A stretch of 7,565 bases of DNA from a virus (Monodnaviria; Loebvirae; Hofneiviricota; Faserviricetes; Tubulavirales; Inoviridae), in IMG/VR virus record IMGVR_UViG_2537562217_000001; one strand, 5' to 3'. Shown piece by piece: positions 3,597 to 4,622 of this stretch (within the stretch, counting starts at the first letter, position 1; the number at the start of each line of letters is the position of its first letter). A program made the translations under genes and the position numbers. The notes below the pieces were generated by a model, which was given only the letters and a program-made list of their open reading frames with translations, had not been told where the DNA came from and made no database searches.

Positions 3597-4622
3597 ATGG
3601 CTATTTCTGCATATATTGGCATACCCGGCTCAGGAAAAAGTTATGAAGCCGTTTGCAATGTCATTATTCCTGCATTTACCAGCGGCCGGAGAGTTATGAC
3701 GAACATTTATGGTTTACAAAAAGATAAAATCACCGAACGTTATCCTGATGCAACGGGAGAAATTATTGTTGTGGATAATGATGATGTGCTTAAAGCAGAT
3801 TTCTTTCCTTTTAAAGGTGGGGAAGGGAGCTTTTGCCAGTTTGGTGATTTAATTGTTATTGATGAAGCATGGCGAATCTTCGGTAGCGATAAGGATATGA
3901 CGGCTGAGAAGAAATCATTTATTGCTGAACATCGTCATTTTACGCACCCTGAAACGGGTATTAGCTGTGATTTGGTTATTGTAAATCAGTCACTTTCTAA
4001 TATTGCTCGCTTTCTGAAAGACAAAATAGAAACAACTTACCGGATGCGCAAGCTGAAAGCGTTGGGCCTGAATAATCATTACTGCATTGACGTATATTCA
4101 GGCCACAAAATCTATAAAAGCAACCTCGTCACCAGTTATCGCAATAAATATAACCCTGATATTTTTGAACTTTATAAAAGCTATGAAGGAAATAACGGTA
4201 ATGAAAAGCAGACAGATAAACGCCAGAGCATCTGGAATTCTGGCAAAGTCAGGTTCTTTCTTGTGCTTTTTCCATTGATGTTTATCGGGTCAGGCTGGCT
4301 GATTTACTCATTTTTCAGCACGTTTGGCCGAAGCGATCCCTCGCCAGATTTGGCTACAACAGATGTACGTGATGCGGCCATGTTTCGTTCTTCCGCTGCT
4401 ACTCCAGCACCAGATACTCCCTCAGAACCAGCTGAACCGCCACTTTCAACCGAGTGGCGTATATCAGGGAGAATGACCAGTGAAGGCAGGGCGTTTGTGA
4501 TTCTTGTTAACGGTGCCGGTGTTTTGCGTGCCGTTCCTGCATCCAGTTTTAATTACAAAGGGATGTTGATGAGCGGAATTATTGATGGTGAGCGTGTGAC
4601 GCTTTATACGGGGAAAAAATAA
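3597..4622 (+). CDS. Zot / pI-family phage assembly NTPase (zonula occludens toxin-like protein)
   Basis: 341 aa. N-terminal Walker A GIPGSGKS (residues 8-15) and Walker B-like LIVIDEAW. Single internal TM segment (VRFFLVLFPLMFIGSGWLIYSFF, roughly nt 4248-4316) followed by a Pro/Ser/Thr-rich C-terminal domain. ATG lies 3 nt after the upstream stop; its own stop overlaps the secretin start (TAATG). Confidence 0.85.
   Translation: MAISAYIGIPGSGKSYEAVCNVIIPAFTSGRRVMTNIYGLQKDKITERYPDATGEIIVVDNDDVLKADFFPFKGGEGSFCQFGDLIVIDEAWRIFGSDKDMTAEKKSFIAEHRHFTHPETGISCDLVIVNQSLSNIARFLKDKIETTYRMRKLKALGLNNHYCIDVYSGHKIYKSNLVTSYRNKYNPDIFELYKSYEGNNGNEKQTDKRQSIWNSGKVRFFLVLFPLMFIGSGWLIYSFFSTFGRSDPSPDLATTDVRDAAMFRSSAATPAPDTPSEPAEPPLSTEWRISGRMTSEGRAFVILVNGAGVLRAVPASSFNYKGMLMSGIIDGERVTLYTGKK

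Follow-up and report, generated by a model that had tools for sequence, protein, structure and literature searches.

The DNA analysed here, hereafter the window, is the full 7,565-nucleotide stretch of IMG/VR virus record IMGVR_UViG_2537562217_000001, assigned to the Inoviridae, and judged by its sequence it is a filamentous (inovirus) prophage of the CUS-1/YpfΦ type. About 100 complete Escherichia coli chromosomes, among them those of UTI89, NU14, F11 and APEC strains, match the prophage part (window positions 304-6960) at 99.6-99.9% identity, and its Zot protein is nearly identical to that of Yersinia pestis; the identification as CUS-1/YpfΦ follows from these two observations. The gene under study is the gene I homologue of this prophage, zot, whose product ends in a tail beyond its membrane helix. 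An earlier reading of the sequence alone, referred to below as the original prediction, had singled out this tail as a possible toxin-related domain and an in-frame ATG as a possible second start. We suggest instead that the tail would couple the export ATPase to the secretin encoded by the next gene. The features on which the argument draws are the following, with window positions and residue numbers of the Zot protein or, for the last line, of the secretin.

3306..3593, + strand: pVI-like minor coat gene (DUF2523; Pfam E 1e-20)
3597..4622, + strand: Zot-family gene I/zot homologue, 341 amino acids plus stop (open reading frame, ORF; Pfam Zot)
3597..4241, + strand: cytoplasmic P-loop ATPase domain, residues 1-215 (Pfam match at residues 4-196; AlphaFold2, AF2, predicted local distance difference test, pLDDT, about 85-94)
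3618-3641, + strand: Walker A motif GIPGSGKS, residues 8-15
3849-3866, + strand: Walker B motif LIVIDE, residues 85-90
4044..4046, + strand: in-frame ATG, Met150, most likely a mere internal methionine of the ATPase fold
4248..4316, + strand: single transmembrane (TM) helix, residues 218-240 (Kyte-Doolittle 19-residue maximum 1.95 at residue 218)
4317..4442, + strand: Pro/Ser/Thr/Ala-rich periplasmic linker, residues 241-282 (42 amino acids), disordered and non-conserved
4443..4616, + strand: conserved six-stranded β domain, residues 283-340 (58 amino acids), motif LSxxWRIxG...F...G...DGExVTxYSG
4622..5866, + strand: phage secretin (pIV-like), 414 amino acids (Pfam Secretin E 1.3e-24)
4676-4906: N0-like periplasmic region of the secretin, about residues 19-95, assigned by position only

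The protein matches the Pfam Zot model (PF05707) at E 2e-26, scoring 93.1 bits where the curated threshold is 20.3, and G13 and K14 in Walker A, as well as D89 and E90 in Walker B, are invariant in an alignment of 108 sequences. The original prediction of a pI-like Zot-family NTPase carrying both Walker motifs is thus borne out, as is that of a single TM helix, given that residues 218-240 form the only segment above 1.6 on the Kyte-Doolittle scale (19 residues) and that AF2 models a helix at residues 216-241. By analogy with the Zot/pI family, the helix would be oriented so as to leave the C-terminal tail in the periplasm. Searching the whole protein against PDB sequences returned nothing relevant.

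The Y. pestis copy of the protein (YPO2279) shares 338 of the 341 residues with the window Zot, the substitutions being M34V, G233S and A253T, and its C-terminal domain is identical; the exact window sequence is also an NCBI entry from E. coli, named 'zonular occludens toxin family protein'. Y. pestis carries two tandem zot copies, each 99% identical to the window Zot. In Y. pestis NCTC5923 (contig NZ_UAVH01000007.1, 108663-126427; loci L004 and L005), the zot-secretin modules lie about 8.7 kb apart, which is consistent with tandem YpfΦ prophages. YpfΦ Zot (YPO2279/YPO_RS12400) and the CUS-1 homologue of E. coli O18:K1:H7 are essentially the same protein as the window Zot, and they stand in the same gene order (gVI-like gene, zot, secretin, two small unknown ORFs) within an element adjoining hipBA, whereas the window copy has gene II cut by the insertion sequence IS1 and carries IS2 on its right flank. 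Disruption of YPO2279, assigned to the secretion module, is reported to abolish YpfΦ particle production (review PMC4266046; Chouikha 2010 as summarised there and in PMC10354491), and YPO2279 has been equated with zot (PMC10354491). The same publication already describes the N- and C-terminal domains of Y. pestis Zot, an AlphaFold model and the absence of the FCIGRL motif, calls a complex with the phage secretin probable and leaves a toxin role open (PMC10354491). The sequence identifies the gene as the pI-type morphogenesis ATPase (Zot) of a CUS-1/YpfΦ inovirus prophage, a real, ordinary and previously described gene.

The Ff phages (M13/f1/fd) provide a parallel in architecture and function. 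Their pI has the same Walker A/B ATPase, single TM helix and periplasmic tail, its gene lies just upstream of and overlaps the secretin gene IV, as in the window, and its role is trans-envelope assembly and export. Similarity in sequence to M13 pI is marginal and N-terminal only (BLASTP E 0.03, residues 1-138), and hhalign aligns only residues 1-38, around the P-loop. CTXφ Zot of Vibrio cholerae shares the Pfam family and the topology, and the annotated CTXφ record shows no secretin gene, whereas the window phage carries its own. The original prediction had proposed aligning the protein with V. cholerae Zot and Ff pI; by BLASTP, both alignments show N-terminal similarity only, and the C-terminal domain has no significant similarity to either tail.

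The tail comprises residues 241-341, and with 101 amino acids it is longer than that of M13 pI (76) and shorter than that of CTXφ Zot (152). Considering that 107 homologues of 335-362 amino acids each cover 99-100% of the query, its size is normal for the clade, and the description of the tail as 'extended' is therefore apt only in relation to M13. Likewise, the roughly 100-residue periplasmic domain with a Pro/Ser/Thr-rich linker announced in the original prediction has the expected length, and really consists of two parts, a disordered linker of about 42 amino acids and a folded domain of 58.

The linker (residues 241-282) is made up of 45% Pro, Ser and Thr, against 16% in the remaining protein, or of 62% when Ala is counted, and the peptide quoted in the original prediction corresponds to its residues 248-282. 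In the 108-sequence alignment, the most frequent residue of each linker column reaches a fraction of only 0.13-0.23, the length varies from 30 to 49 amino acids across the family, and AF2 assigns pLDDT values below 50 to residues 247-276, which are predicted to be disordered. The β domain that follows is conserved, with S284, W287, G291 and F318 invariant in the same alignment. The structure prediction proposed for the C-terminus was carried out: modelled alone by AF2, the β domain is all-β, with six strands and a pLDDT of 90.6.

Pfam holds no model for the β domain, and scanning the tails of the window Zot, CTXφ Zot and M13 pI at E<=10 returned noise only. A profile built from the domain gave 194 matches at E<=1e-3 among 1.84 billion cluster representatives. 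All 60 long matches retrieved (306-453 amino acids) are P-loop proteins with the loop in the N-terminal part and the domain at the C-terminus or close to it, except that P0244 lacks its N-terminal part. The hosts of the phages that carry the domain include Proteus, Pasteurellaceae, Pectobacterium, Xenorhabdus, Pandoraea and Undibacterium. Besides, two large proteins, P0228 (6489 amino acids) and P0283 (964 amino acids), repeatedly match part of the profile, in 9 and 7 stretches, respectively, the best of which fall at profile positions 18-59 and 40-60; these proteins may carry an unrelated repeated β-hairpin motif. Among the database entries, some in the set P0006, P0016, P0076, P0101, P0004 and P0128 are Zot-secretin fusions of 295-585 amino acids with both Pfam domains, and the set also includes one DUF2523-Zot fusion (438 amino acids) and one 405-residue cluster member. 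These entries are probably frameshifts or products of gene calling across overlapping stop and start codons.

The genomic context of the β domain points to the secretin. In the window, the stop codon of zot and the start codon of the secretin gene overlap (TAATG), and among 80 related loci of a species-dereplicated genome collection, 77 carry a secretin gene directly downstream; of the other three, two have a truncated pI gene and one reaches the end of its contig. Three proteins (P0252, P0274 and P0278) separate the contributions of the two ends of the molecule. Their ATPase domain is Ff-like, with 29-38% identity to M13 pI (E 5e-27 to 7e-47), and their similarity to the window Zot by BLASTP is significant in the C-terminal domain only (E 7e-11 to 1e-5). 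The next gene in each case is a secretin that is 41-43% identical over its full length to that of the window, and the N0-like regions of these secretins are 41-46% identical to the window's (E 5e-23 to 2e-28). Compared with M13 pIV, the similarity of the three secretins is confined to the secretin core, with none detectable in N0. The loci in which a chimeric pI is followed by a CUS-1-type secretin are the following.

L106, 4001-6312: chimeric pI and CUS-1-type secretin
L107, 3001-5605: chimeric pI and CUS-1-type secretin
L108, 1115-3550: chimeric pI and CUS-1-type secretin

Since three lineages with an Ff-like ATPase pair the β domain with a CUS-1-type secretin, the type of the C-terminal domain follows the type of the secretin and not that of the ATPase, and these chimeric loci suggest that tail and secretin have been exchanged as a cassette. 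Distances between homologues are in keeping with this pattern: in a mirror-tree comparison, those of the C-terminal domain correlate with secretin N0 at r 0.84, compared with r 0.74 for the protein's own ATPase domain, and the partial correlation is 0.48 between C-terminal domain and N0 against 0.25 between ATPase and N0.

Known secretin systems offer a structural precedent. PilP and GspC-HR, which are structurally homologous, both bind the N0 domain of secretins and are carried on a flexible linker from an inner-membrane anchor (PMC3169554). The layout predicted for the window Zot is the same, in that a Pro-rich, disordered linker joins the anchor in the inner membrane to a small β domain, and N0 of the secretin would be its partner too, except that the window β domain forms one protein with the export ATPase, whereas PilP and GspC-HR belong to separate platform proteins. 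In a Foldseek search of the PDB, PilP entries account for 6 of the top 34 matches, all of them weak, and the top match is a model of the type IVa pilus machine. We take the matching chain in this model to be PilP. PilP and GspC-HR recur among the top weak fold matches and are enriched in two independent search methods. Moreover, Ff genetics place pI/pXI's periplasmic domain against N0 of pIV (PMC8563730).

Several points weigh against coupling to the secretin. The DNA of the C-terminal domain abuts the secretin gene, so that one recombination would move both, which confounds the cassette and the mirror-tree evidence alike; given this genomic adjacency, the mirror-tree signal was down-weighted. 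The fold matches of the β domain are sub-threshold, none being significant, and the N0 boundaries in the window secretin are positional, as Pfam detects the secretin core only. Taking both sides together, we put at roughly 75% the probability that the protein is a pI-type ATPase whose β domain docks on N0 of the cognate secretin to form an export channel. In such a machine, the cytoplasmic P-loop domain (residues 1-215) would power assembly with ATP and the helix (218-240) would anchor the protein in the inner membrane. The fast-evolving, flexible Pro/Ser/Thr/Ala-rich spacer (241-282) would span the periplasm, allowing the β domain (283-340) to dock on the N0-type N-terminal domain of the phage's own secretin. 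This secretin would be supplied by the translationally coupled next gene, and Zot and secretin together would constitute the trans-envelope export channel. The analysis establishes which gene this is, how its product is divided into domains, what is conserved in it and that it occurs alongside a secretin; the physical docking on N0 and a PilP/GspC-HR-like fold are what we infer. Coupling to the secretin is thus the best reading of the tail, and it is presented as a testable hypothesis, not as a result.

A further step would be to regard the β domain as truly homologous to the PilP/GspC-HR module, a relationship not recognised until now, with the domain fused to the ATPase and exchanged as a cassette with the secretin between otherwise unrelated pI lineages. 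The two share neither sequence similarity nor a Pfam match, and their structural scores lie below significance, and we consider this homology possible yet doubtful. If true, it would give phage export and the inner-membrane platforms of type II secretion and type IV pili a second component in common, in addition to the secretin.

Three other explanations of the tail or its gene were weighed. The first is that the β domain has a different periplasmic role, such as a part in assembling pI into rings or oligomers, an interaction with the emerging virion (a pVII/pIX-like tip or the major coat) or one with peptidoglycan. It leaves unaccounted for why the type of the C-terminal domain should track the N0 type of the secretin across unrelated ATPase lineages, and both the Ff genetics, which set pI/pXI's periplasmic domain against N0 of pIV (PMC8563730), and the enrichment of PilP/GspC-HR matches by two independent search methods argue against it. 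We therefore regard a different role as unlikely, in favour of docking on the secretin.

The second explanation concerns a shorter product. Gene I of Ff phages makes pXI by an internal start, and initiation at ATG 4044, or at another in-frame start, would analogously yield a pXI-like product without the ATPase that co-assembles with pI. As the original prediction stated, this ATG (codon 150) has no Shine-Dalgarno (SD)-like motif, here within the 20 nt upstream. A poor SD is no bar to use, considering that the M13 pXI start itself, Met241, has only a weak one (AGGT, 6 nt upstream), and Met150 is conserved in at least 90% of 108 aligned homologues. Its conservation has another setting, however: Met150 lies inside a predicted ATPase β-strand (residues 144-152 in AF2) and belongs to the conserved IETTYRM motif. 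Of 68 different homologous genes, the Met150 column holds a start-type codon in 43, and not one of these 43 has even a permissive SD. Met150 also stands 68 residues upstream of the TM helix, compared with 13 for Met241 in M13, and the 192-residue product would retain a fragment of the ATPase domain.

Other starts fare no better. Between codon 156 and the TM helix, the window zot has neither ATG nor GTG nor TTG in frame, and it has no equivalent of the Ff pXI start just before the helix; the GTG at codon 223 does have AGGT 8 nt upstream, but a start there would truncate the helix. Across 66 genes, start codons with an SD are not enriched before the TM helix, occurring in 9 and 4 genes in the bins of residues 201-220 and 221-240, as compared with 16-19 genes in some other bins. 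In the databases, many cluster representatives of 89-145 amino acids (e.g. P0139, P0140, P0142-P0144, P0164, P0168 and P0215) consist of the TM helix, linker and C-terminal domain only, and some such entries start with M, V or L within the helix or 10-25 residues before it. Gene calls beginning in or just before the TM helix would favour an internal start, but several of the short entries open with non-start residues (F, S), as expected of contig-edge fragments, and the sequences suggest that these proteins are at least partly fragments. A pXI-like product, from ATG 4044 or elsewhere, finds no support in the sequence, and we regard it as very improbable.

The third explanation is a moonlighting toxin, in which the C-terminal part would be cleaved, released and open tight junctions, as proposed for V. 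cholerae Zot, and aid the virulence of E. coli K1 or Y. pestis. The protein shares the family and overall topology of CTXφ Zot (hhalign Prob 98, E 1e-13), CUS-1 and YpfΦ modestly raise host fitness in vivo by a mechanism that is unknown (PMC4266046), and Zot has been named a candidate with reference to reported tight-junction disruption by Zot proteins without FCIGRL (PMC10354491). The receptor-active motif of V. cholerae Zot, FCIGRL/GRLCVQDG (residues 288-298, FCIGRL itself at 288-293), is nonetheless absent from the window Zot, where the corresponding region reads WRISGRMTSEG. In one register, G291-R292-M293 resembles G291-R292-L293 of Zot, but residue 292 is variable within the family.

Similarity to CTXφ Zot also stops short of the tail. 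BLASTP aligns only residues 1-229 (22% identity, E 7e-13), and tblastn with the tail alone found uncharacterised gut inoviruses only, with no Vibrio phage even at E<=10. When the hidden Markov model of the C-terminal domain was scored against the CTXφ Zot tail, 891 of 2000 shuffles scored as high, and with a broader profile 697 of 2000 did; the same broader profile gave 330 of 2000 for the M13 pI tail, in which no similarity to the β domain is detectable. The whole-protein hhalign alignment sets FCIGRL against the invariant WRIxG strand (WRISGR). This overlay was considered and rejected when a profile of the C-terminal domain only was compared with shuffles; it is no more than the N-terminal alignment carried on passively across the TM helix and linker. 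In a fold search of BFVD, a fragment of CTX Zot ranks sixth, but its E is 0.25 and its TMq 0.40.

The distribution of the two tails differs as well. By tblastn against the phage collection, the CTXφ Zot tail turns up in CTX and pre-CTX phages only, with identities of 88% or more. As to a family for the Zot C-terminus, the homologue search gave 4 near-identical fragments and the viral-contig scan CTXφ copies only, so that no diverse profile could be built. The β domain, in contrast, comes with a secretin (downstream in the 77 of 80 loci mentioned above) and is conserved in phages infecting bacteria of plants, insects, soil and water (such as Pectobacterium, Xenorhabdus, Pandoraea and Undibacterium), a spread that favours a role in the phage itself. 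The sequence contains no sign of a toxin, and a toxic role for the tail seems to us a very slim chance indeed. As far as sequence analysis reaches, neither a toxin-like C-terminus nor a signal for internal initiation was found, which speaks against both leads of the original prediction.

The remaining features of the window describe the prophage around zot and its secretin.

1-303: IS1, 99% identical to the IS1 copies of phage P1 and SfIV
351-665: gene II remnant (G2P_X_C), the last 104 codons as an ORF (Pfam E 4e-35)
after the gene II remnant, in left-to-right order: G5P-type single-stranded DNA-binding gene (Pfam)
between the G5P gene and the coat-like gene: small membrane ORF
before the gIII-like ORF: coat-like gene (weak, sub-threshold coat B match, E 0.0016)
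1581-3293: gIII-like ORF, 570 amino acids, no Pfam match
5955-6203 and 6349-6597: two 82-residue ORFs downstream of the secretin, no Pfam match
6969-7565, minus strand, at the right window edge: IS2 orfB segment, 99.5% identical to SfX/Stx2-phage IS2

The order of the morphogenesis module in the window (G2P_X_C, G5P, weak coat B match, DUF2523, Zot, Secretin) is annotated likewise in E. coli, and in E. coli EC554 a CUS-1-type element adjoins hipBA. The stop codon of the DUF2523 gene falls within GGGTGAG, an SD-like motif 3 nt before the zot ATG. Because IS1 cuts gene II and leaves its last 104 codons, this copy of the prophage should be replication-defective; judged from its sequence it is probably a defective copy with intact zot and secretin genes. 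A search of 5,426 complete E. coli genomes did not find the exact IS1/gene II junction.

By position, the gIII-like ORF is likely puvA of CUS-1, the interruption of which reduced the in vivo fitness of E. coli K1 (PMC4266046); the RefSeq version of this ORF has 520 amino acids, with a start about 150 nt further downstream. The pair of 82-residue ORFs corresponds by position to YPO2280a/YPO2281 of YpfΦ, two genes of uncharacterised function that stand where CTXφ has ctxAB (PMC4266046).

Earlier publications on the near-identical YpfΦ protein already report the gene and its family, that phage production requires it and that its C-terminus lacks FCIGRL. This analysis adds the division of the tail into a spacer and a conserved β module without a Pfam model, which co-segregates with the type of secretin. 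The β module would offer a concrete, testable interface for the poorly understood coupling of pI and pIV, with W287, F318 and their neighbours facing N0 of the secretin. The analysis also argues against taking each 'Zot' annotation among Enterobacteriaceae for a toxin gene.

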